From Parcubacteria group bacterium (GTDB lineage: Bacteria > Patescibacteriota > Minisyncoccia > Phycocordibacterales > Phycocordibacteraceae): 64,000 nucleotides of DNA. How positions within the stretch are numbered: position 1 is the first letter of the stretch; each line of letters begins with the position of its first letter. A program made the translations under genes and the position numbers. Shown here piece by piece: positions 3,818 to 57,510 of the stretch. Location of the stretch: the NCBI GenBank assembly GCA_028286605.1, contig JAQBRE010000002.1, positions 326,011 to 390,010 on the forward strand, in the 5' to 3' direction. Under the pieces are notes generated by a model. That model saw only the letters and a program-made list of their open reading frames with translations. It was not told the DNA's origin and did no database searches.

Positions 3818-4984
3818 ATGCAGGCACGACGCATCATTCTTCCCGCACTCTTGATACTGATGCTTCCGGCCTTTGCGAATGCCGCGACATTCGCCGAACA
3901 GAAGACGCTCGTTCTTTCTGCGGCGCCTCCGGATAACACGTACCTTGCCGGCGCAAGTGTAACGGTGAGTGCTCCATTGCCTGCTGATCTTTCAGCAGCA
4001 GGCGGCACTGTAACGACATATTCGCCGATTGGAGGTGATGCGCTTATTGCAGGCGGTACGGTAGATTTGCAGCAGGCCGTTGCAGGCGACGTGCGCGCGG
4101 TTGGCGGACGCATCATGATTGATGCGCCGGTGGCCGGCGACGTAGTCGCCGGTGGAGCAACGATAAACGTTTCTGCGCCAGCGCGTGATATGCGCCTGTT
4201 CGGCGTGAACGTGCAGGCAACGGGCGGTGCGTACGGACCGGTCACTATCTACGGGGCAGACGTAACGCTTGCGGGAAATTATGACGGTGATGTGGAGGTA
4301 ATCGCTTCAGACCACTTCACGGTTGGCCCGAATACGCACATTCATGGCGTGCTGAAATACAATGCACCTCAGCAGGCTGAGATTCCTGCATCATCCATCG
4401 TGGATGGGGGAGTAACGTACACGGGCTCCTACGCATACGTACCGACGAATGCAGAAGCGCAGAAGTTCGCGATTGCCGGCGCGGGAGTATTCTTCATTGT
4501 GCGGGCGCTTGCGGTGATGATAGCGGCCGGCCTCCTGGCCGGCCTGTTCCCGCAATTCAGCGAAGCGCTCGCCACACGCATATTCACGCGCCGCTACGCA
4601 CGCACGAGCCTGCTCGCACTTCTTGGCTTCGGCGTGCTTATCGCCACGCCCGTTCTTATTCTGCTTCTCACGGTTTCATTCGTGGGCGGCGGCCTCGCAT
4701 TACTGCTCGGTTCTGGGTATGTCTTCCTTATTTTCCTTTCCTACATATACACGGGCATTCTTGCGGGAGGCGCGCTTCGTCAACTAATTACGAAGCGATC
4801 CGCTACGCTCATCTCCTGGCAGGATGCTCTCGCCGGCACTCTCGTATTTTTCATACTCGGTAGCATTCCCTACTTAGGCGGCATCATCACGCTCATCGCA
4901 GTGTGTCTTACGCTTGGCTTCATGGTCTCTGGTCTATACTTATTCACATTCCGCAGGGATACCTCGTGGCAGGAATCACTCTAA
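3818..4984 (+). CDS. Membrane protein with N-terminal signal peptide, extracytoplasmic beta-solenoid-like G-D-V repeat region and C-terminal polytopic membrane domain
   Basis: Signal peptide LLILMLPAFANA. Repeats AGDVRAVGG / AGDVVAGG / GADVTLAG. Four C-terminal hydrophobic helices. Confidence 0.45.
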   Translation: MQARRIILPALLILMLPAFANAATFAEQKTLVLSAAPPDNTYLAGASVTVSAPLPADLSAAGGTVTTYSPIGGDALIAGGTVDLQQAVAGDVRAVGGRIMIDAPVAGDVVAGGATINVSAPARDMRLFGVNVQATGGAYGPVTIYGADVTLAGNYDGDVEVIASDHFTVGPNTHIHGVLKYNAPQQAEIPASSIVDGGVTYTGSYAYVPTNAEAQKFAIAGAGVFFIVRALAVMIAAGLLAGLFPQFSEALATRIFTRRYARTSLLALLGFGVLIATPVLILLLTVSFVGGGLALLLGSGYVFLIFLSYIYTGILAGGALRQLITKRSATLISWQDALAGTLVFFILGSIPYLGGIITLIAVCLTLGFMVSGLYLFTFRRDTSWQESL

Positions 4985-4996
4985 TTTATCTACTCT

Positions 4997-5470
4997 ATGG
5001 CACTACCAACCATCGGTTCTATCGCTCCCGATTTTACGCTTGAAGATCAAGATGGCGTAGAACATTCGCTTTCGCAATATAAAGGGAAATACGTACTCGT
5101 CTATTTCTATCCGAAAGACGACACTCCTGGCTGCACGAAAGAAGCCTGCTTGCTTGGCGAATATATGCCGGATTTCTCGAAGAGCGATGCGGTGATACTC
5201 GGCATATCTCCGGACACTGTTAAGAGCCATAAGAAGTTCGCAGAGAAGTACGGACTGAAGTTTACATTGCTCGCAGACCCGGAAAAGAAATCAATCAGCG
5301 CATACGATGTGTGGGGCCTGAAGAAGTTCATGGGCAAAGAATACGAAGGAGTATTCCGTACGTCGTTCCTGGTTGCGCCAGATGGAACCGTAGCTAAGGT
5401 GTACGAAAATGTGAAGCCAGAAAAGCACGCAGAGGAAGTGCTCGCAGACCTGCAGGAACTTCACGGATAA
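4997..5470 (+). CDS. bcp: Thiol peroxidase / peroxiredoxin Bcp
   Basis: FYPKDDTPGCTKEAC peroxiredoxin active-site motif. 157 aa. Confidence 0.85.
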   Translation: MALPTIGSIAPDFTLEDQDGVEHSLSQYKGKYVLVYFYPKDDTPGCTKEACLLGEYMPDFSKSDAVILGISPDTVKSHKKFAEKYGLKFTLLADPEKKSISAYDVWGLKKFMGKEYEGVFRTSFLVAPDGTVAKVYENVKPEKHAEEVLADLQELHG

Positions 5471-5472
5471 TC

Positions 5473-6141
5473 ATGGCTGAAGGGAAGTTCGAAGAACGAA
5501 AAGCGCGAGCGAAGAAGATGCTTGCGTACTTGAAGAAGGCGTATCCGGAACCGAAAACGGAACTCACCTACAAGACGCCGATACAGCTCGTTGCGAGCGT
5601 TATGCTTTCGGCACAGTCTACCGACAAGCGGGTGAATCTCGTTACCGATACGCTATGGAAAAAATATAAGACGGTGGACGATCTTGCGAATGCGGACCTG
5701 GCTGAATTCACGAAAGAGATTTCAAGCATCACATTTTATAGAAATAAGGCGAAGGCGATTATCGGCACCGCGAAGATGATCCGTAATGAGTTCGGCGGAA
5801 AGATTCCCAAAACGGAAAAGGAACTCGTGCTGCTTCCTGGCATCGCGTATAAATCTGCGCACGTGATCATGGGTGAGTTGCACGGCATATACGAAGGCAT
5901 ACCGACCGACACGCACGTGCGGCGTTTCGCGCTCCGTTTCGATCTTACCGACAGCAAAGACCTCACGAAGATTTCGAAAGATCTCGAAGCATTGATTCAG
6001 AAGTCAGATTGGAAATACGTGAACAACGGTCTGGTGTTGTATGGACGCTATGTATGTAGGGCGTTACCGCACCCGTGCGAAGACCATCCGCTCACCAAGA
6101 TCTGGCCGCCTGCCGCGCATCGCTGGCCCAAGGCGAAATAG
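5473..6141 (+). CDS. nth: Endonuclease III family DNA glycosylase (HhH-GPD)
   Basis: FYRNKAK, LPGIAYKSAHVIM (HhH) and DTHV motifs. Only 2 of the usual 4 Fe-S cluster cysteines are present at the C-terminus. Confidence 0.75.
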   Translation: MAEGKFEERKARAKKMLAYLKKAYPEPKTELTYKTPIQLVASVMLSAQSTDKRVNLVTDTLWKKYKTVDDLANADLAEFTKEISSITFYRNKAKAIIGTAKMIRNEFGGKIPKTEKELVLLPGIAYKSAHVIMGELHGIYEGIPTDTHVRRFALRFDLTDSKDLTKISKDLEALIQKSDWKYVNNGLVLYGRYVCRALPHPCEDHPLTKIWPPAAHRWPKAK

Positions 6142-6143
6142 CT

Positions 6144-6953
6144 ATGGAGGTTCGTGCATTCAGGAAAACTATATGGGATTTTTATAAGAAGCAGGGAAGG
6201 CATGATCTTCCGTGGCGAACGACGACGGACCCGTACAAGATCCTCGTTTCAGAAGTGATGCTGCAGCAGACGCAGGTGGAAAGAGTTTGCAGCTATTACG
6301 CAGCGTGGCTAAAACAGTTTCCGAACGTGAAGGCGCTCGCGGCTTCGCCGCTCGCCGACGTACTAACCGCGTGGCAAGGTCTCGGCTATAACCGGCGCGC
6401 GAAGATGCTGCACGATGCAGCAAAGGTAGTGGTACGAGAATACAAAGGAAAGATGCCGACCAATCCGGAACTGCTGGTAAAGTTGCCTGGCGTCGGCCCG
6501 TATACAGCGCGTGCGGTCGCAGCATTCAGTACGAATGCAGATGTCGTATTCATCGAGACGAATCTGCGCACCGTCGTATTGCATCATTTCTTTCCGAAGA
6601 AAAAGGTAGTGAGTGATGCAGAAATCCTTGAGGTTCTGACAGATGCCTTTCCTAAAGGAAAGGCTCGCGAATGGTATGCCGCACTTATGGACTACGGCTC
6701 GTACCTGAAGCGGAGCGGCGTAAGGGTGAATGCAAAGAGCAAGACGTATGCGAAGCAGTCTGCGTTTAGCGGCTCTGGGCGCGAAGCACGTGGTGCCGTG
6801 TTGAGAGAGCTTGCGAAAGGAGCGGTAACGCAGAAGCGCCTTGTTGGCTTGCTTGGTGATGACCGTACGGCACAAATCAGCGAGCAGCTTATGAAGCTGC
6901 TCGCTGAAGGGATGGTACAGAAAAGCGGCGTGCGCTATTCGCTTCCACGCTAA
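6144..6953 (+). CDS. A/G-specific adenine glycosylase (MutY)-like HhH-GPD protein without a NUDIX-like C-terminal domain
   Basis: LPWR...PY.ILVSEVMLQQTQV and GLGYNRRAKMLH, LPGVGPYTA motifs. The ATG at 6144 directly follows the nth stop. The longer ORF from 6075 overlaps nth. Confidence 0.7.
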   Translation: MEVRAFRKTIWDFYKKQGRHDLPWRTTTDPYKILVSEVMLQQTQVERVCSYYAAWLKQFPNVKALAASPLADVLTAWQGLGYNRRAKMLHDAAKVVVREYKGKMPTNPELLVKLPGVGPYTARAVAAFSTNADVVFIETNLRTVVLHHFFPKKKVVSDAEILEVLTDAFPKGKAREWYAALMDYGSYLKRSGVRVNAKSKTYAKQSAFSGSGREARGAVLRELAKGAVTQKRLVGLLGDDRTAQISEQLMKLLAEGMVQKSGVRYSLPR

Positions 6954-8143
6954 ACACGGTTCGCATCTACGTGCGTCATCTGGCGTACGGGGCGGAAACT
7001 GCGCACATGGGTCGCCGTAATCATGCCGACGAGCATCACGATTAAGCCCATGCATACGAAGAATATTTGGTATGTGCTGATAAGCAGGAAGATGCTGCCG
7101 ACAACCGGGGCAATCAGCGCGCTCAAGGGGCGCATCATGCGGAACACACTTACGGTGTCCGCGTCCCGTTCTGATACGCGACGGAAGAAATGTCCTTCAG
7201 TCATAGCCTCGACGAGCGCAGCACCGACGCGGCTGATGAACAGGATAAGCAAGATGATGAGGATAGAGGTACTTGCGGTGACGTACGCGATGAGTGCGAA
7301 TGCGGTGCCCATAATTATGAAGCCCGCAATGAGCAGCGCGCGATCACCGAGCTTCGTATCTGCAAGGATTCCTGCTGGATACTCCACCAGCACGAACGGT
7401 GCAAGCATAAGTGCGAATACCCAGCCAAGCTCGCTCCAGGGGATGCCAAGCACCGTATGCAGATAGAGTGGTATATATAGCTGCGCGAACTGATAGAAGG
7501 TCTGCAACATGAGCATAGATGCGGCGATGGCACGCAGGTCTGAATCTTTCATCACGTTGCGGATCGCTTCACGCGTACTGCTCTTGATCGCAGTGAGGCC
7601 GTGCGGCAGTTTCGCGCCAAACATAAGCAGGATGAATGGAACGAGCGAAAGGGAAGCGACGAAGAATATGCGGTCGTAGCGGTCGCCGCCATCCAGAAGC
7701 GTACCGATAATCAGAGGTGCCACGAGTAAAGCAGTATTACCTGCGGTGAGGAATGCAGTACGTATGCGGCCGGTCGAATTCTCATTCTCAACCGTTGCTT
7801 CAACGAGGATGTCGAGCTGATACGCAAGCAATGGTGCAATTGCGCAGGTAAGCGCGGCAAGTACGATGGCAGCGAACGGCGTCGGCGAAAGCGCAAGGCA
7901 AAGTAGTATGAATGCCTGCAGCAGACTGAAACCTAGGGCAAGCTGTTGTGCGCCGTATCTGCGCACGAGTTTCGGTATGAACGGAAATACTATCAAGGTT
8001 ACTACTGCGCCGAATGATATGACGAAGCCGGTAAGCGAGGCTGGCATGAACATGGCCAAATACGGGCCGAGCACGTACACGATAAGAAAGAAGTACGCAG
8101 ACGCGAAGAAATTACCGAACGAAAGTATCCGACGCGTGCGCAT
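6950..8143 (-). CDS. MFS-family transporter
   Basis: About 12 predicted TM helices in a 6+6 arrangement, 397 aa. Confidence 0.7.
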   Translation of the reverse strand: MRTRRILSFGNFFASAYFFLIVYVLGPYLAMFMPASLTGFVISFGAVVTLIVFPFIPKLVRRYGAQQLALGFSLLQAFILLCLALSPTPFAAIVLAALTCAIAPLLAYQLDILVEATVENENSTGRIRTAFLTAGNTALLVAPLIIGTLLDGGDRYDRIFFVASLSLVPFILLMFGAKLPHGLTAIKSSTREAIRNVMKDSDLRAIAASMLMLQTFYQFAQLYIPLYLHTVLGIPWSELGWVFALMLAPFVLVEYPAGILADTKLGDRALLIAGFIIMGTAFALIAYVTASTSILIILLILFISRVGAALVEAMTEGHFFRRVSERDADTVSVFRMMRPLSALIAPVVGSIFLLISTYQIFFVCMGLIVMLVGMITATHVRSFRPVRQMTHVDANRV

Positions 8144-13726: not shown

Positions 13727-13845
13727 GGCTCGGTTCTCCCAATAGCCGTTGATTTGGACTGGATATACTATAGCACTATAATTGTGTATTTGTCAAGTTA
13801 AGCAAATAATGTGACAGGGAAGCAGAAGTACTATTTGGAGATATC

Positions 13846-13875
13846 AAATAATGACCAGATTTCTGGTCATTATTT
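13846..13875. promoter_or_regulatory. 30 bp palindrome AAATAATGACCAGA-TT-TCTGGTCATTATTT. Candidate operator, 178 bp upstream of groES.
   Basis: Perfect 14 bp arms. A near-identical copy lies at 56862..56901. No CIRCE (TTAGCACTC-N9-GAGTGCTAA) or HAIR element is present upstream of groES. Confidence 0.5.
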
Positions 13876-18314: not shown

Positions 18315-18349
18315 AAAAGGAATGGCCCGCGAAGCGGGCCATTCCTTTT
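18315..18349. terminator. Bidirectional terminator between tRNA-Ser/htpX (+) and the dsbA-like gene (-)
   Basis: 16 bp stem aaaaggaatggcccgc / gcgggccattcctttt, with A/T runs on both sides. Confidence 0.6.
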
Positions 18350-24381: not shown

Positions 24382-24402
24382 TTAACAATCTTATAGTTTG
24401 TA

Positions 24403-24432
24403 AGAAAAGCGTCCGGTGGACGCTTTTCTTAC
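24403..24432 (+). terminator. Rho-independent terminator after nrdB
   Basis: aagaaaagcgtccgg-tggacgcttttctta. Confidence 0.6.
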
Positions 24433-26159: not shown

Positions 26160-26513
26160 GGACCGATCCAGACGACCGCTCCAAGATGCCGGAAGGCCTC
26201 AGGGGAGGAAAGTCCGAACACAGGCCGGCGGTTTCCGCCGGCAGAAGGGTAGCGGGTAACGCCCGTCCGCAGTAATGCGCGAGGTGCGAGCAGAGACGCT
26301 TTAGCGGAAACGCGAGAGCATCTGATTTCGGTCAGATGAATCCACTTGGTGACTTGTGGGGTGAAACGGCTAAATCCTTACTTCTGTGCAAGGCCGTGCC
26401 GGTAGTCTTTCGGGACATGCCGGAGCGCCGCTCGAGCCGGCTGGTAACAGCCGGCCCAGATAGATGGTCGTCCTTGCGCAAGCAGGACAGAATTCGGCTT
26501 ATCGGATCGGTTC
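26160..26513 (+). ncRNA. rnpB: RNase P RNA (bacterial type A)
   Basis: P4 halves GAGGAAAGTCCGAACAC and ACAGAATTCGGCTTATC, GGTAACGCC, GGTGAAA, GCTGGTAACAG. The 10 bp P1 pairs 26160-26169 with 26504-26513. Confidence 0.85.
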
Positions 26514-26524
26514 AAAAACATGAA

Positions 26525-33248: not shown

Positions 33249-33263
33249 CTGACGCGAAAAAGT

Positions 33264-33298
33264 AAAAACAGCCCCGACCTCCGGTCGGGGCTGTTTTT
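33264..33298 (+). terminator. Rho-independent terminator after the glutaredoxin gene
   Basis: 16 bp stem aaaaacagccccgacc / ggtcggggctgttttt. Confidence 0.65.
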
Positions 33299-33317
33299 AT
33301 GCTACGCTCGCAGTATC

Positions 33318-36805: not shown

Positions 36806-37906
36806 ATGATCGACATGGTCACACTTAATTCGATCTTTTCCTGGGCACGTCGATATGAACGCCATCTTTCTGGTATCGCATTCGTGCTCGGATTTATCGG
36901 CGATTTATTCACGTTCGCCGTACTGGATCTATCGCTCGCGAATCTAGCCTTCATCGGGTATCTTGTCGCTGCTGCATTTGCGACGTTTCTGGCACACGTC
37001 GTTTCTTCGCGCTTCAGCGAGCACGACGCGCTTTGGCGTCGTGCCACCTCTGCACTCGCGCCCCTAATAGTTAATTTCACGACGGGCAGCTTGCTTTCGG
37101 GTACGCTCATTTTCTATACGAAAAGCGCAACGCTTTCTGTCTCATGGCCTTTTATCGTATTGCTCGTACTTGTATTTCTGGGTAATGAAATCTTCCGTGA
37201 ATATCGCGCGCACCTTGCGTTCCAGACCGTTCTTTTCTTTTTTTCGCTCTACGCCTATGCGATATTCTCACTCCCGCTCATTCTTGGCCGTCTTGGCCCC
37301 ATGGTCTTTCTTGAAAGTACCGGAGCTGCAATACTCATTTTCGCATTATTCCTTGGGTTGCTCGCACTTGCAGGCTGGAGGCGCTTACAGGAGACACTCG
37401 TACCTATTTTGGGCGGTTCAGTGGTAGTTCTTATCATATTGGTCGGCTCCTACTTCACCTCGCTTATACCGCCGATTCCGCTCACGCTGCGCGATAGTGG
37501 CATCTATCACGATGTACAGCATGTAAACGGCGGTTACGCGCTCTCTACTGAGGCTGAACGTCCGTGGTGGCAGTTTTATGAGCCTGTGGTTATACATCAC
37601 GTTGCCGGTACGCCGCTCTACGCCTTCAGTGCCGTGTTCGCTCCTGGCGCGTTTTCTGCGAACATCATCCATGAATGGTCTCGCTACGACACTACGCAGA
37701 AGAAATGGATTCCGGAATCTACCGTGGCGTTTCCGCTTTCAGGCGGTCGTGCCGGCGGGTATCGCGGCTATTCAGAAATAACGAATGCGCCCGCAGGGAA
37801 ATGGCGCGTCTCTATTAAGACGATCTCAGGCCAAACCATCGGCCGCATAACGTTCACGGTCGTCGATTCTTCAACCGAACCAATCGTACACACCGTAACT
37901 GAATAG
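36806..37906 (+). CDS. Membrane protein with N-terminal polytopic domain and C-terminal extracytoplasmic domain (DUF2914-like architecture). Hypothetical.
   Basis: About 7 TM helices, then a ~130 aa soluble C-terminal domain. The track's start abuts tRNA-Phe, so the true start is probably a downstream ATG. Confidence 0.45.
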   Translation: MIDMVTLNSIFSWARRYERHLSGIAFVLGFIGDLFTFAVLDLSLANLAFIGYLVAAAFATFLAHVVSSRFSEHDALWRRATSALAPLIVNFTTGSLLSGTLIFYTKSATLSVSWPFIVLLVLVFLGNEIFREYRAHLAFQTVLFFFSLYAYAIFSLPLILGRLGPMVFLESTGAAILIFALFLGLLALAGWRRLQETLVPILGGSVVVLIILVGSYFTSLIPPIPLTLRDSGIYHDVQHVNGGYALSTEAERPWWQFYEPVVIHHVAGTPLYAFSAVFAPGAFSANIIHEWSRYDTTQKKWIPESTVAFPLSGGRAGGYRGYSEITNAPAGKWRVSIKTISGQTIGRITFTVVDSSTEPIVHTVTE

Positions 37907-37922
37907 GCGCGATAGATACGTA

Positions 37923-38016
37923 AAAAGCACTCTAAAAAGGGGCTGCGGAGCGTGACGACGCGAGCCGGAGCAAATTCCCAGCAGGGAATTATGCGTACCC
38001 TTTTTAGAGTGCTTTT
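37923..38016. repeat. Copy 1 of a ~95 nt conserved structured element. 19 bp perfect outer stem, enclosing a 56 nt core with two internal hairpins. Candidate structured RNA or bidirectional terminator.
   Basis: AAAAGCACTCTAAAAAGGG-[gctgcggagcgtgacgacgcgagccggagcaaattcccagcagggaattatgcgta]-CCCTTTTTAGAGTGCTTTT. The copy at 49740..49835 has the same 56 nt core with 5 substitutions and a different outer stem. Confidence 0.6.
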
Positions 38017-38023
38017 GAAGTGT

Positions 38024-38563
38024 CTAGGTAGACTTCACCTTCAGCTTCGTCTGACGGCTCTTATCAAGCTTCGGCATAACGATGGTGAGCAAACCATCCT
38101 TAGCACCCGCTGATGCATTGTCCACATCAACTTCCTGTGGAAGAAGGATGGTACGGGAGAATGAACCCCAGAAGAGTTCGCGTATAAAATAATCCTCGTC
38201 GTTCACGGCATCACGCTCTTCGCGCGAACCTTCAATAACAACCATATCGCGGCTAAGCGAAAGGCTTATCTCATCGGGACGAACGCCTGCGATGAAAGTG
38301 CGAATGACGATCTCGCCTGCGGTCTGATAGACGTCTACAGGAAGCTCGCCATCGCTCTGCTTTTCCTCAAGCGCGTTGATCATGGTCGCATGCGCTGGAG
38401 CTGGAGCGACGGAAGGAATAGAACCCATTGAACCGGTAGGAGAATTAGCCGACATTTTGCGGATGGGCTGCTGCTGCGGAACGAAATCGTCTTCGAACGC
38501 ATCGTAGTCATCCGAGATCGGAACCGATCCGGAGAGCCGTTCGAAGAAAGATCGTTTTTTCAT
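38024..38563 (-). CDS. Hsp20/alpha-crystallin family small heat-shock protein
   Basis: Alpha-crystallin domain with DGLLTIVMPK (the G-x-L motif). 179 aa. Confidence 0.85.
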   Translation of the reverse strand: MKKRSFFERLSGSVPISDDYDAFEDDFVPQQQPIRKMSANSPTGSMGSIPSVAPAPAHATMINALEEKQSDGELPVDVYQTAGEIVIRTFIAGVRPDEISLSLSRDMVVIEGSREERDAVNDEDYFIRELFWGSFSRTILLPQEVDVDNASAGAKDGLLTIVMPKLDKSRQTKLKVKST

Positions 38564-44317: not shown

Positions 44318-44327
44318 TTAATCCTTT

Positions 44328-44364
44328 AAAAAACACGGCCTTGCTATGCAAGGCCGTGTTTTTT
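44328..44364. terminator. Bidirectional terminator between convergent genes
   Basis: aaaaaacacggccttgc-tatg-caaggccgtgtttttt. Confidence 0.65.
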
Positions 44365-44383
44365 AATACCCACCCACAAATAT

Positions 44384-48717: not shown

Positions 48718-48740
48718 GCAGTCGCACTCATCTCCAACAG

Positions 48741-48769
48741 AAAAGCCGCGAGCGAAGCTCGCGGCTTTT
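48741..48769. terminator. Bidirectional terminator (downstream of trxB on the minus strand and of the small acidic ORF on the plus strand)
   Basis: aaaagccgcgagc-gaa-gctcgcggctttt. Confidence 0.65.
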
Positions 48770-48790
48770 CTTATTCTCACCATTCTTTCA

Positions 48791-49714
48791 TTAGTGCATC
48801 TTCACCCAAAGGTAAATATCCTCGAGTGCCTTCACCGCGTCGCCTGCAGCGATATTGTTCTGATGATAGAGCTCGTCCGTGCAATCACCGGCTGCCCAGA
48901 CACCCTCCACGCTCGTGTGCTGATTCTTGGGGTCCGTCACGACGCGTCCGATCGCATCTAGTTCGACAAGGTCCTTTGCGAAGCTCGTGTTCGGTACGAC
49001 GCCGATCTCAACGAATATGCCTGTAACCGGAAGGGTAGTTTCTGCACCGGTCGTACGTTCCTTAACGACGAGGCCAGAAACGAATTTCTCTCCCTTCACC
49101 TCGACCGGTTCGCTGTTGCAGATCATATGCATCTTCGGATTCGAAATCAGCTTCTCCACCGTAATCGCATCACCCTTCAGCTCGCCGTGACGATGAATGA
49201 GCGTAACCGATTTCGCATACGCAAGCAGCTGCGCTGCGCTCTCAAGCCCAGCATTCCCGCCACCAACCACAGCCACGTCTTGGCCTGCAAAGATGGGCCC
49301 GTCACATGAGGCGCAGTAGGTGAGTCCCTTGTGTTCGAACGTGTCTGCGCCAGGCACCATAAGACGCCGGCGCGCAGCGCCGGAAGCGATGAGCACTGCT
49401 TTCGCGTCGAACGTATCTCCTTTCGTGGTCGTTGCGCGGAAACCCTCTTCAAACCGCTCCAGATGCTCTACACGGCTTCCTTCCTGTATAGATAGCACTT
49501 CGCCCGCATAGGTTTCCAAATGCTTCTGGAGGGACTTCTTCAGGTTCTCACCAGAAATCACCGGCGTGCCGATCCAGTTCTCGATACCCTCTGAAACCAC
49601 CGACTGCCCGCCGAATTCTTCTGCGACAAGAACCGTCTTCAATCGCTTGCGTGATGCATATACACCCGCTGCGACTCCTGCCGGCCCGCCTCCAATAATT
49701 ATCAAATCGTTCAT
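48791..49714 (-). CDS. trxB: Thioredoxin-disulfide reductase
   Basis: IIGGGPAG FAD motif, CASC redox-active disulfide, VVGGGNAG NADPH motif. 307 aa. Confidence 0.9.
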   Translation of the reverse strand: MNDLIIIGGGPAGVAAGVYASRKRLKTVLVAEEFGGQSVVSEGIENWIGTPVISGENLKKSLQKHLETYAGEVLSIQEGSRVEHLERFEEGFRATTTKGDTFDAKAVLIASGAARRRLMVPGADTFEHKGLTYCASCDGPIFAGQDVAVVGGGNAGLESAAQLLAYAKSVTLIHRHGELKGDAITVEKLISNPKMHMICNSEPVEVKGEKFVSGLVVKERTTGAETTLPVTGIFVEIGVVPNTSFAKDLVELDAIGRVVTDPKNQHTSVEGVWAAGDCTDELYHQNNIAAGDAVKALEDIYLWVKMH

Positions 49715-49739
49715 TTTTAAATTATATCAGGTACAGCAA

Positions 49740-49835
49740 AAAACACTCCGATAAAAGGGGCTGCGGAGCGCGACGGCGCGAGCCGGAGCAATTTTCCAGC
49801 AGGAAAATATGCGTACCCTTTTATCGGAGTGTTTT
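49740..49835. repeat. Copy 2 of the ~95 nt conserved structured element, located between the ftsZ stop and the trxB start
   Basis: AAAACACTCCGATAAAAGGG-[gctgcggagcgcgacggcgcgagccggagcaattttccagcaggaaaatatgcgta]-CCCTTTTATCGGAGTGTTTT. It has a 20 bp perfect outer stem. The core is identical to copy 1 except for compensatory changes. Confidence 0.6.
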
Positions 49836-49842
49836 GAGCTGT

Positions 49843-51117
49843 CTATTTCTTGTGGCGACGAAGGAAGCTTGGAATCGCGCCCCAGGTGTCGTCCTCTTCT
49901 TCGACGATAGGCGGCGTGATGGCCTGTGCGGTTTCGCGAGGCTTCGGCATTGCCGTTACGATAGGCTCTTCGCGTTCGCGGCGAGGAGGAAGGATAGGTC
50001 CCTCGTCTTCTGGCATTGGCATAGATGCTGGCGCTTCTTCGCGCGGTGCAGGGCGGCCGAGCACGTCATTGAAGATCTTTCCGCGGCTTTCTTCCTGCTC
50101 CTTCGCAGGCATCGTGAAGAGCGAGCGTTCGCCACCTGTGTATGACGCGGATCCATCCTGTTCAGGGAAACCGGTCGCGATGACGATGATGCGGAGCTGG
50201 CCCTTCTTAAGCTTCTCATCGCGCATGATACCGAAGATGACCTTCGCGCTCTTATCAACGGATTCGCCGATAACCTTCGCTGCTTCCTGTACTTCAAGGA
50301 TGCCGAGGTCGTCTGAACCTGCGACCACAAAGAGGATGCCACGAGCGCCGGTGATGGAAACATCGAGGAGCGGGGAATTAACGGCTGCTGCAGCGGCGTC
50401 CTTGGCACGGTTGTCGCCGTCTGCGATACCGATACCCATGAGCGCTGGGCCGGCACCTTCCATGATCGCCTTGATGTCGTTGAAGTCCGTGTTGATTTCA
50501 CCAGGAGTGGTGATGATATCGGAAACACCTTCCACTGCCTGACGAAGGATTTCATCGCAGAGCGCGAATGCATTCTTCGCGGAGGTCTGTGCTTCTACGA
50601 TAGAGAGAAGCTTGTCGTTAGGAATAACGAGATATGCGTCTACTTCCTTCTTAAGAGAAGCAAGACCGACTTCAGCGATCTCGGTGCGCTGTGCGCCTTC
50701 GAAGGTGAACGGCTTGGTGACGACGGCAACGGTGAGCGCGCCGAGCTCCTTCGCGATCTTCGCGACGACGCCTGCTGCGCCTGTTCCTGTTCCGCCACCC
50801 ATGCCGCAGGTGATGAAGACCATGTCTGAACCCTGAAGCGCTTCCTGAATCTCCTGACGTGTCTCTTCAGCGGCACGACGGCCGAGCTCTGGGTTCATTC
50901 CAGCACCGAGGCCCTTCGTGAGGTTCTTGCCGATGTGGATCTTACGCTTCGCGAGGCTGCGGTGCAGATCTTGCGCGTCCGTATTGATAGCGATGAACTC
51001 CACGCCCTTCACCTTGGAGTTGATCATGTGATTAACAGCATTGCCGCCAGAACCTCCACAGCCGACGACGCGGATGCGTGCGAACGTTTCGATTTCAGGG
51101 GTTACGCGCTTGGACAT
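49843..51117 (-). CDS. ftsZ: Cell division GTPase FtsZ
   Basis: GGGTGTGAAGVVAKIAKE tubulin signature. 424 aa with a C-terminal tail. Confidence 0.97.
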   Translation of the reverse strand: MSKRVTPEIETFARIRVVGCGGSGGNAVNHMINSKVKGVEFIAINTDAQDLHRSLAKRKIHIGKNLTKGLGAGMNPELGRRAAEETRQEIQEALQGSDMVFITCGMGGGTGTGAAGVVAKIAKELGALTVAVVTKPFTFEGAQRTEIAEVGLASLKKEVDAYLVIPNDKLLSIVEAQTSAKNAFALCDEILRQAVEGVSDIITTPGEINTDFNDIKAIMEGAGPALMGIGIADGDNRAKDAAAAAVNSPLLDVSITGARGILFVVAGSDDLGILEVQEAAKVIGESVDKSAKVIFGIMRDEKLKKGQLRIIVIATGFPEQDGSASYTGGERSLFTMPAKEQEESRGKIFNDVLGRPAPREEAPASMPMPEDEGPILPPRREREEPIVTAMPKPRETAQAITPPIVEEEDDTWGAIPSFLRRHKK

Positions 51118-51249: not shown

Positions 51250-51636
51250 ATGAAAAAAGATTTTAAAGGGTGGAATAAACAAAAAAGCGATATTGATGAT
51301 TCAGCACCACGACCATTCTTTCGTGAAGGTGAAGTATGGTGGTGCTCTTTAGGTGCGAACATTGGTTTTGAAATGGATGGAAAGAATGAAATATTCGAAC
51401 GTCCAGTATTTATACTTAAAAAATTCAATAATGAGACATGTTTGGTTCTCCCTACAACGTCTCAATCTAAGTCTGGACGTTTCTATTATCCATATATGAG
51501 TAATGGAAAGAAATTTGCAATTAATCTGTCACAAGTTCGACTTCTTGATGTAAAACGTTTGAGGCGTAGAGCGTATGTTCTGTCCCAAAAGCAACACAGT
51601 GAAATTAAAACTAAATTCATATCACTCCTTGAATAG
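51250..51636 (+). CDS. MazF/PemK-family endoribonuclease-like toxin paralog 2 (orphan), in a low-GC islet between ftsA and ftsZ
   Basis: GEVWWCSLGANIGFEMDG...FERPVFIL...ETCLVLPTTSQ aligns with the 8307..8696 protein over its full length. No antitoxin-sized ORF is adjacent. Confidence 0.6.
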   Translation: MKKDFKGWNKQKSDIDDSAPRPFFREGEVWWCSLGANIGFEMDGKNEIFERPVFILKKFNNETCLVLPTTSQSKSGRFYYPYMSNGKKFAINLSQVRLLDVKRLRRRAYVLSQKQHSEIKTKFISLLE

Positions 51637-56861: not shown

Positions 56862-56901
56862 GAAACAAATAATGACCAGAATTCTGGTCATTATTTGTTT
56901 C
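56862..56901. promoter_or_regulatory. 40 bp perfect palindrome GAAACAAATAATGACCAGA-AT-TCTGGTCATTATTTGTTTC. Second copy of the candidate operator, upstream of the small membrane-protein gene 57008..57313.
   Basis: Shares 28/30 positions with 13846..13875. Lies about 55 bp upstream of a TTGACA-N17-CAGTAT putative promoter. Confidence 0.5.
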
Positions 56902-57007
56902 CTCGCATTTAGATGTTCTCTGTCTGGAACGATGTTGGAACCTTGTTTGACAAACACACTATTGTGTAACAGTATCTTTCCAGACCAAACAGGATCGGAG
57001 ACCCCCT

Positions 57008-57313: not shown

Positions 57314-57510
57314 CCAACCGTTTCTTCGGCGGAACGAAACCTAAACCCCTTCGTTTCGTGCGGAGGGGCGGTTTTCTTTTCTATAAATTGAGTACTGGGA
57401 TACTGGGATGATGTTGGAACTTTTCTGAAGTGGCGCAGACTAGGGATCGAACTAAAAGACAAAAGGCCGGAGCGAAGCTCCGGCCTTTTGTCTTTTGCAC
57501 CGTGCGTGCG

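Follow-up and report, generated by a model that had tools for sequence, protein, structure and literature searches.

The 128-nt gap between ftsZ and trxB in this stretch of Patescibacteria DNA (64,000 nucleotides, called the window below) harbours a member of a previously undescribed family of structured repeats that is widely dispersed among Patescibacteria. The family is a structured variant of the known interspersed palindromic repeats, specific to Patescibacteria and probably reused here as a terminator. We assign a probability of roughly 0.6 to the reading that the copy in this gap (copy 2 of the window) is a duplicative, insertion-polymorphic Patescibacteria repeat that carries the ftsZ terminator role at this locus. 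Each copy combines a variable long outer stem (P1) with a conserved apical three-way junction made with the P2 and P3 arms. At this locus the element occupies the position of the ftsZ intrinsic terminator, with a stem base resembling the plain terminator of relatives and with A and U tracts on its flanks.

Both genes lie on the minus strand (ftsZ stop at 49843, trxB start at 49714), and the claim of the first-pass annotation that copy 2 nearly fills the gap between them agrees with the coordinates and geometry that we obtained: the element spans 49733-49842 and consists of a 27-bp hairpin around a 56-nt three-way-junction core. The 20-nt arm AAAACACTCCGATAAAAGGG at 49740-49759 (+) has its exact reverse complement at 49816-49835, and shuffles give an expectation of 0 matches for such an arm with an inverted partner. 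In full, the paired arms reach 27 nt each (49733-49759 and 49816-49842) and enclose 56 nt. The outer part of the 5' arm is ACAGC followed by an A tract at 49738-49743, which is the complement of the U6 found 3' of the hairpin in the ftsZ-sense transcript, and the inner part is CACTCCGATAAAAGGG. The window FtsZ is a 100% match to the FtsZ of a Parcubacteria-group MAG, with many relatives at 80-94% identity. The features of this region are as follows.

48739..48771, no strand assigned: ordinary bidirectional terminator of trxB itself, formed by a perfect 15-bp palindrome that has GCGAAGC as its loop and carries A/T tracts
48791..49714, minus strand: trxB, thioredoxin-reductase-like Pyr_redox_2 protein (Pfam)
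49721..49729, minus strand: trxB extended -10 box TGATATAAT, 6 nt upstream of the ATG at 49714-49712, between the element and trxB
49733..49759, plus strand: copy 2 P1 5' arm (inverted repeat, fold)
49760..49815, plus strand: copy 2 apical three-way-junction core, 56 nt (fold, covariance-model match, covariation across 68 copies)
49760-49789, plus strand: copy 2 P2, including the P2a hairpin at 49768-49779 with loop GACG
49791-49808, plus strand: copy 2 P3 hairpin with loop AGCA
49788-49789 with 49811-49812, plus strand: copy 2 P3 extension, GC paired with GC (fold)
49816..49842, plus strand: copy 2 P1 3' arm, with TTTT at 49832-49835, ending one base short of the ftsZ stop codon
49843..51117, minus strand: ftsZ (Pfam Tubulin and FtsZ_C), whose stop codon adjoins the element

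The other copy in the window (copy 1, 37913-38026) keeps the 56-nt spacing of copy 2, and the two cores are 91% identical. It had been placed downstream of two convergent genes, and Pfam bears this out, identifying them as a DUF2914 gene and hsp20.

36806-37906, plus strand: DUF2914 gene (Pfam), flanking copy 1 and convergent with hsp20
37913..37941, plus strand: copy 1 P1 5' arm (inverted repeat, fold)
37942..37997, plus strand: copy 1 core, 56 nt (91% identity to the copy 2 core, covariance-model match)
37998..38026, plus strand: copy 1 P1 3' arm, overlapping the hsp20 stop codon (CTA at 38024-38026)
38024-38563, minus strand: hsp20 (Pfam), flanking copy 1 and convergent with the DUF2914 gene

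The differences between the two copies in P2a and P3 are compensatory (GCGU/ACGC versus GCGC/GCGC, and AAUUCCC/GGGAAUU versus AUUUUCC/GGAAAAU). Their homology covers about 110 nt, that is, the whole hairpin, including the TGTCTA that holds the neighbour's stop codon; therefore copy 1 looks like a whole-hairpin duplicate, and it may derive from copy 2 or from copy 2's ancestor, having been placed between the convergent genes. In two relatives (L005 and L009; loci and genomes are given by such L numbers) the copy-1 site is empty and hsp20 and the DUF2914 gene abut or overlap. Copy 1 would supply a bidirectional terminator between these genes at a place where relatives are without one. On the plus strand the two window copies fold with energies of -64.1 and -62.3 kcal/mol (z = -10.4 and -9.2 against shuffles). 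A covariance model built from relatives scores copy 2 at 76.4 bits and copy 1 at 75.2 bits, and since the third-ranked match in the 64-kb window reaches only 10 bits, the window holds exactly two copies.

The family was delimited by pattern and covariance-model searches. A genome scan with one genome per species, using a pattern of the positions common to the four copies then available, returned 49 loci, about 30 of them with a genuine copy, every one in a Patescibacteria MAG (Paceibacterota, Parcubacteria, Kaiserbacteria, Saccharibacteria or Doudnabacteria); the leftovers are chance matches in high-GC genomes. A metagenome scan added at least about 25 further copies among the matches listed, which were mostly high-GC chance matches. 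A covariance model built from 49 copies then brought the family to at least 68 copies, spread over 56 loci and including divergent ones outside the search pattern; their hosts are without exception Patescibacteria (Paceibacterota, Saccharibacteria, Kaiserbacteria and Doudnabacteria). The earlier suggestion that the element is position-independent, not gene-specific, holds well, the same module occurring in about 60 unrelated contexts in other Patescibacteria. No Rfam 15 family matches the element, whether at the gathering threshold in the window, in a permissive search with the element itself (chance-level matches only, E above 2) or in seven other loci, where nothing at E up to 1 overlaps it. 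Our literature search found no description of such an element in CPR bacteria, and a 2026 preprint on intergenic features makes no mention of these bacteria. A pattern scan of viral collections that included the gap of the window subtype gave only chance matches, BLAST of the element against phages gave none, and a peptide-profile search of a protein database for in-frame copies gave one weak match.

All genuine copies fold into the same three-way junction. The P1 outer stem measures 15-44 bp and varies in sequence from copy to copy. P2 usually consists of CUGC/GCAG, a G(N)A/GA internal loop and a 4-bp hairpin capped by GNCG; P3 consists of 2-5 bp, a 1-2-nt bulge and then 7 bp capped by AGCA. 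Compensatory changes were found in 13 of 16 pairs in the first alignment, and changes on both sides in 17 of the 18 core pairs once 68 copies were aligned. Across these 68 copies 96.6% of pair cells are standard pairs, as against 67% in shuffles and 33-49% with slid partners. The letters that appear invariant in the scan set are not evidence of conservation, because the search pattern itself imposed them; the copies that break the pattern, recovered with the covariance model, carry A-U or U-A for G-C in P2 and AGUA, ACCA or AGUC as the P3 loop, and the G(N)A/GA loop and GNCG cap persist in them. The anatomy of kink-turns, hammerheads, group II domain V, SRP and 5S RNA was compared with that of the element, and none of them fits. 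An impression that no stop codon occurs in any of the six frames holds for the consensus, not for real copies, which average 3.2 open frames versus 2.2 in shuffles.

The orthologous region in five relatives (L002, L004, L005, L007 and L009) shows what the element replaces. It is present in the ftsZ-trxB spacer of the window, L002 and L007, the last two with spacers of 129-137 nt. In L004, L005 and L009 the spacer is 51-53 nt and has nothing but a canonical terminator hairpin, such as GAAAAGCGCTCC-ATAG-GGAGCGCTTTTTC; the stem of this hairpin is similar to the outer P1 of the element (AAAACACTCC...GGAGTGTTTT). The ordinary terminators of the window genome are 13-20-bp perfect palindromes flanked by A and T tracts. 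In the ftsZ sense, the element forms a 20-27-bp stem followed by UUUUUU, the hairpin and U tract of an intrinsic terminator, and a U tract 3' of the hairpin is found in all three filled spacers. Its position is that of an intrinsic terminator too, as it adjoins the ftsZ stop and the canonical terminator stands at the same place in the three relatives without it. The 56-nt structured apex is unlike textbook terminators, and a simple intrinsic-terminator scanner made no call on the copy 2 hairpin because its loop exceeds 8 nt. From the terminator-like appearance, the position and the replacement of the plain terminator of relatives, we infer a role at the ftsZ end: the hairpin and U6 would end the ftsZ transcript and protect its 3' end, and on the other strand the hairpin could stop antisense transcription.

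The first-pass annotation had left open whether the element is the ftsZ terminator, the 5' leader of the trxB mRNA, or both. As a cis-regulatory leader or attenuator of trxB, the element would be an aptamer for a ligand or a protein, embedded in a terminator and governing whether ftsZ transcription reads through into trxB. It does lie directly upstream of trxB, and terminator-embedded aptamers are known, for example the HMP-PP riboswitch (PMC6478431). However, the trxB -10 box (TGATATAAT or (T)ATACT) stands downstream of the element at exactly 6 nt from the ATG, a distance kept in six of six genomes with the element present or absent. Moreover, three close relatives with identical gene order have a spacer without the element, and elsewhere this core is found, in either orientation, within unrelated genes as well as upstream and downstream of them, only three orthologous copies adjoining trxB. 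A simple sigma-70 scanner did not call the box because it has no -35 hexamer. Given the place of the box, the trxB mRNA is probably leaderless or near-leaderless and excludes the element, and trxB would be expressed from its own extended -10 promoter just downstream of it. We reject the trxB-leader reading because the box is conserved downstream of the element in all six genomes, and consider it highly improbable; of the two roles proposed earlier, that of ftsZ terminator is plausible (adjacent stop, U6, terminator of relatives at the same place) and that of trxB leader falls away. Judged by these features, the element here is most likely the ftsZ transcription terminator, not a regulatory leader of trxB.

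The core subtype at the ftsZ site differs between genomes (CUGCGGAG...AUGCGUA in the window versus CUGCGCAG...AUUCCGU in L002 and L007), while the outer stem is common to these three. Simple vertical descent does not explain such a switch. Because the apex subtype differs while the outer stem is shared, these data suggest that the apex was replaced by conversion from another copy, or that insertion into the same hairpin occurred repeatedly.

The surroundings of the site contain further features of their own. A 128-aa ORF at 51250-51636 (+) lies between ftsZ and ftsA of the window, at the place corresponding to a PemK-family toxin gene that relatives carry on the opposite strand between ftsA and ftsZ (L002 9482-9868, L005 9476-9868). 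In L004 (relative C7867-007) genes for a DNA methylase and a terminase large subunit occupy 4606-7776, a few kb downstream of trxB, which suggests a prophage remnant near an otherwise conserved region. Perfect palindromes of 13-20 bp with A/T tracts, like the one that follows trxB, recur at 18315-18349, 24400-24432, 33263-33299, 44326-44366, 57454-57496 and other places in the window; dotted over the genome, they are probably bidirectional terminators, and several have the very stable GCGAAGC mini-hairpin as loop.

Across the family, A and U tracts are both present in 18 of 64 copies (about 28%) and neither is present in 26 of 64. Since the tracts are not universal, termination cannot account for conservation across the family; it would be a local use, not the reason for the conservation of the apex. 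The deep structural conservation of the apex, with its two G(N)A/GA motifs and invariant-looking GNCG and AGCA loops, implies a binding partner, and the conserved junction may be a recognition module for a putative protein that could propagate the element or bind its RNA. A stronger version of this idea, in which the apex is a functional RNA or single-stranded-DNA module bound by a dedicated Patescibacteria protein, making the family a new class of element or ncRNA, is possible, if rather unlikely.

A multi-copy ncRNA class would also result if the element were the gene of a trans-acting structured small RNA on the window plus strand, antisense to ftsZ and trxB, with P1 as its processing or terminator stem. 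The very strong covariation is in keeping with this, as are loops and internal loops conserved in the manner of protein-binding RNAs. Isolated wobble mismatches favour the window plus strand as the functional strand (28 G-U versus 13 A-C overall; 19 versus 8 in P1 and 9 versus 5 in the core), but the asymmetry is weak, with a roughly estimated one-sided binomial p of about 0.03 for P1. By gene context, it is the opposite strand that more often enters the mRNAs of adjacent genes, at a ratio of about 2:1. In many copies, chiefly those of the Saccharibacteria type, 5'-GCGA precedes P1 and GAGCG-3' follows it; by their sequence these flanks could form tandem G-A pairs at the P1 base, echoing the motif in P2. 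Against a small RNA gene, no promoter-like site was found adjoining and upstream of either window copy, and -10 hexamers upstream of 66 copies show no positional enrichment in either orientation. Head-to-head pairs about 10 nt apart leave no room for a promoter, sense copies lie in frame inside ORFs, and copies are gained and lost between close relatives. We thus regard such a gene as quite unlikely: in the earlier description of the element as a position-independent 'terminator or sRNA', the terminator remains plausible and the free-standing sRNA gene does not fare well.

The preferred reading, a duplicating repeat put to use as a terminator, draws on how the copies are distributed. Several MAGs carry two or three copies inside 3-10 kb and the 64-kb window carries two, as in a repeat with dispersed copies. 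A tandem triplet with a 116-nt period occurs in L030/L180, and head-to-head pairs about 50 nt apart occur in L071, L048 and L141. Presence and absence are polymorphic at orthologous sites, the ftsZ-trxB spacer being filled in three genomes and empty in three. Most copies are intergenic and adjoin gene ends. In the context tally, a gene 3' end adjoins the element in about 32 cases (about 21 with the gene converging on the element's 3' side and about 11 with the gene co-directional on its 5' side), and a gene start in about 21. The orientation of copies relative to genes is biased, not fixed; a strict antisense arrangement relative to the adjacent gene stood out among the initial 30 copies but came down to about 2:1 in the larger set.

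In eight cases a copy sits in frame within a gene whose Pfam domains carry on to either side of it.

RecG: copies at three different sites (L021, L042, L043)
UvrD: one sense and one antisense copy (L034)
TsaD: one copy (L057)
KsgA/RsmA: one copy (L066)
RsmE: one copy (L020)

The RecG genes of L021 and L042 carry decayed remnants at each other's insertion sites. The initial four copies within genes all fell in RecG or UvrD; the idea of helicase-specific insertion that they raised is weakened by the copies in TsaD, KsgA and RsmE. Split genes or intron-like interruptions were not seen at L174, L144 and L040.

Some loci show larger rearrangements next to copies. The whole of L106, a 1018-nt metagenome contig, encodes a fusion in which the N-terminal half of KsgA passes into the C-terminal half of TsaD exactly at the element. 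Either the repeat gave rise to a chimera during assembly, or two copies within genes have genuinely recombined. The genes fusA (EF-G) and tuf (EF-Tu) are normally adjacent. In L028 (3168-4671) they are about 1.7 kb apart, with two inverted element copies as the bounds of an interval that holds one or more small unknown ORFs and a possible antitoxin, judged by eye from the translation, and that looks like a small composite insertion. Three copies lie within 1.1 kb in L141 (331-1452), a head-to-head pair and a third copy bracketing an exonuclease III gene.

Such behaviour would also be expected of purely selfish DNA, an ssDNA hairpin recognised by an enzyme (transposase or recombinase) whose gene lies elsewhere, in the manner of REP/RAYT or IS200/IS605-derived elements, with the tracts and position incidental and no role for ftsZ. 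The presence/absence polymorphism, the tandem and inverted clusters, the in-frame copies and the decayed remnants all fit this explanation, as does the lack of a strict orientation to neighbouring genes, and compensatory changes can build up along active master-copy lineages without benefit to the host. However, about 460 kb of flanking loci showed no transposase gene, and the ends of the element are not conserved. The copies show neither target-site duplications nor the conserved terminal repeats of a classical MITE; the GCGA...GAGCG flanks are not target duplications, because the same sequence occurs in different genomes. In addition, what the element replaces is the sole terminator ftsZ would have, and all three orthologous copies have kept their U tracts, which points to at least a co-opted terminator role. 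A purely selfish element is, in our estimate, unlikely. By its sequence features, the family would best be described as duplicative, insertion-polymorphic palindromic repeats, whose behaviour appears closest to that of Rickettsia palindromic elements (RPEs) and of SPRITE-type terminator-like repeats.

Comparison with known systems places the family as follows. RPEs are found in intergenic regions and also in frame in housekeeping genes, which stay open and retain their domains (review PMC10969869). Like RPEs, the Patescibacteria elements are hairpin repeats of about 100-150 bp dispersed in a reduced genome, both between and in frame within genes, and for neither is a transposase known. The hallmark of RPEs, in-frame insertion in protein-coding genes, is thus shared, the likeness being one of description. 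Unlike RPEs, the family is hosted by Patescibacteria, conserves only its 56-nt apical junction while the stem varies, shows deep covariation across classes of a phylum-level radiation, and has most of its copies abutting stop codons. SPRITE is likewise a dispersed terminator-like repeat (PMC10969869), and in the present family, too, the hairpin and flanking tracts look like an intrinsic terminator and sit where one would. SPRITE is a simple terminator-like hairpin, whereas the Patescibacteria element has a conserved three-way junction in its loop and both A and U tracts in only about 28% of members. The genome's ordinary bidirectional terminators also share the long perfect stem, flanked by A/T tracts, right after stop codons; their loop is 3-7 nt, in contrast to the 56-nt structured junction of the element.

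REP elements measure 20-40 nt and have a conserved stem, a GTAG head and a dedicated RAYT (Y1) transposase, and Correia and ERIC elements have conserved terminal inverted repeats. Like all of these, the Patescibacteria elements are intergenic palindromes, often just downstream of genes and sometimes in inverted pairs. The anatomy differs from that of REP/BIME in that the ends vary and the apex is conserved, and no RAYT-like (Y1 transposase) gene was present in the flanking loci examined. REP/BIME, Correia and ERIC sequences are part of their neighbours' mRNAs, where they affect stability or are cut by RNases (PMC10969869). TIGR arrays have variable loop spacers and box C/D motifs and form regular arrays by a tas gene with a Nop domain (PMC12045711). 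A stem-loop array of this type does not describe the present family, in which loops are conserved and stems variable, most copies are singletons and no tas-like gene is adjacent.

The window contains other repeats and RNAs apart from this family. An unrelated palindrome, CAAATAATGACCAGA(A/T)TTCTGGTCATTATTTG, occurs twice (13838-13875 and 56862-56904; 97% identity, 43 kb apart) and may represent a further small repeat family, or else an operator or terminator common to both sites. At 1084-1500, direct repeats 36-83 nt long, with spacings of 72 and 309 nt, contain ACCGGATACTTCGG and probably reflect a repeat within a protein-coding gene. A class A RNase P RNA at 26160-26517 (+) matches its Rfam family with 118 bits versus a gathering score of 100, and several of its helices are shortened. 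Reduced RNAs have been described for the CPR radiation, and this weak match fits with them.

The genomes of Patescibacteria (CPR) are tiny, and repeats and regulatory RNA are generally considered scarce in them. A structured repeat family common to at least four named lineages of this radiation, and absent from Rfam, now adds to that picture. The covariation of the family is among the clearest obtainable from about 70 copies. The family offers three practical gains: (i) a ready-made covariance model is available for annotating Patescibacteria genomes; (ii) it provides an explanation for unexpected insertions in RecG, UvrD, TsaD, KsgA and RsmE proteins and for at least one chimeric contig; and (iii) it is a test case for the merging of terminator hairpins and selfish repeats. 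If the reading in which a dedicated protein binds the apex is true, the family would be a new class of structured element that spreads by a novel route, or else a new ncRNA class in many copies and confined to this radiation, going beyond a decaying repeat that has been reused as a terminator. Binding of a specific protein by the apex would point to an unknown RNA- or DNA-handling system in Patescibacteria.
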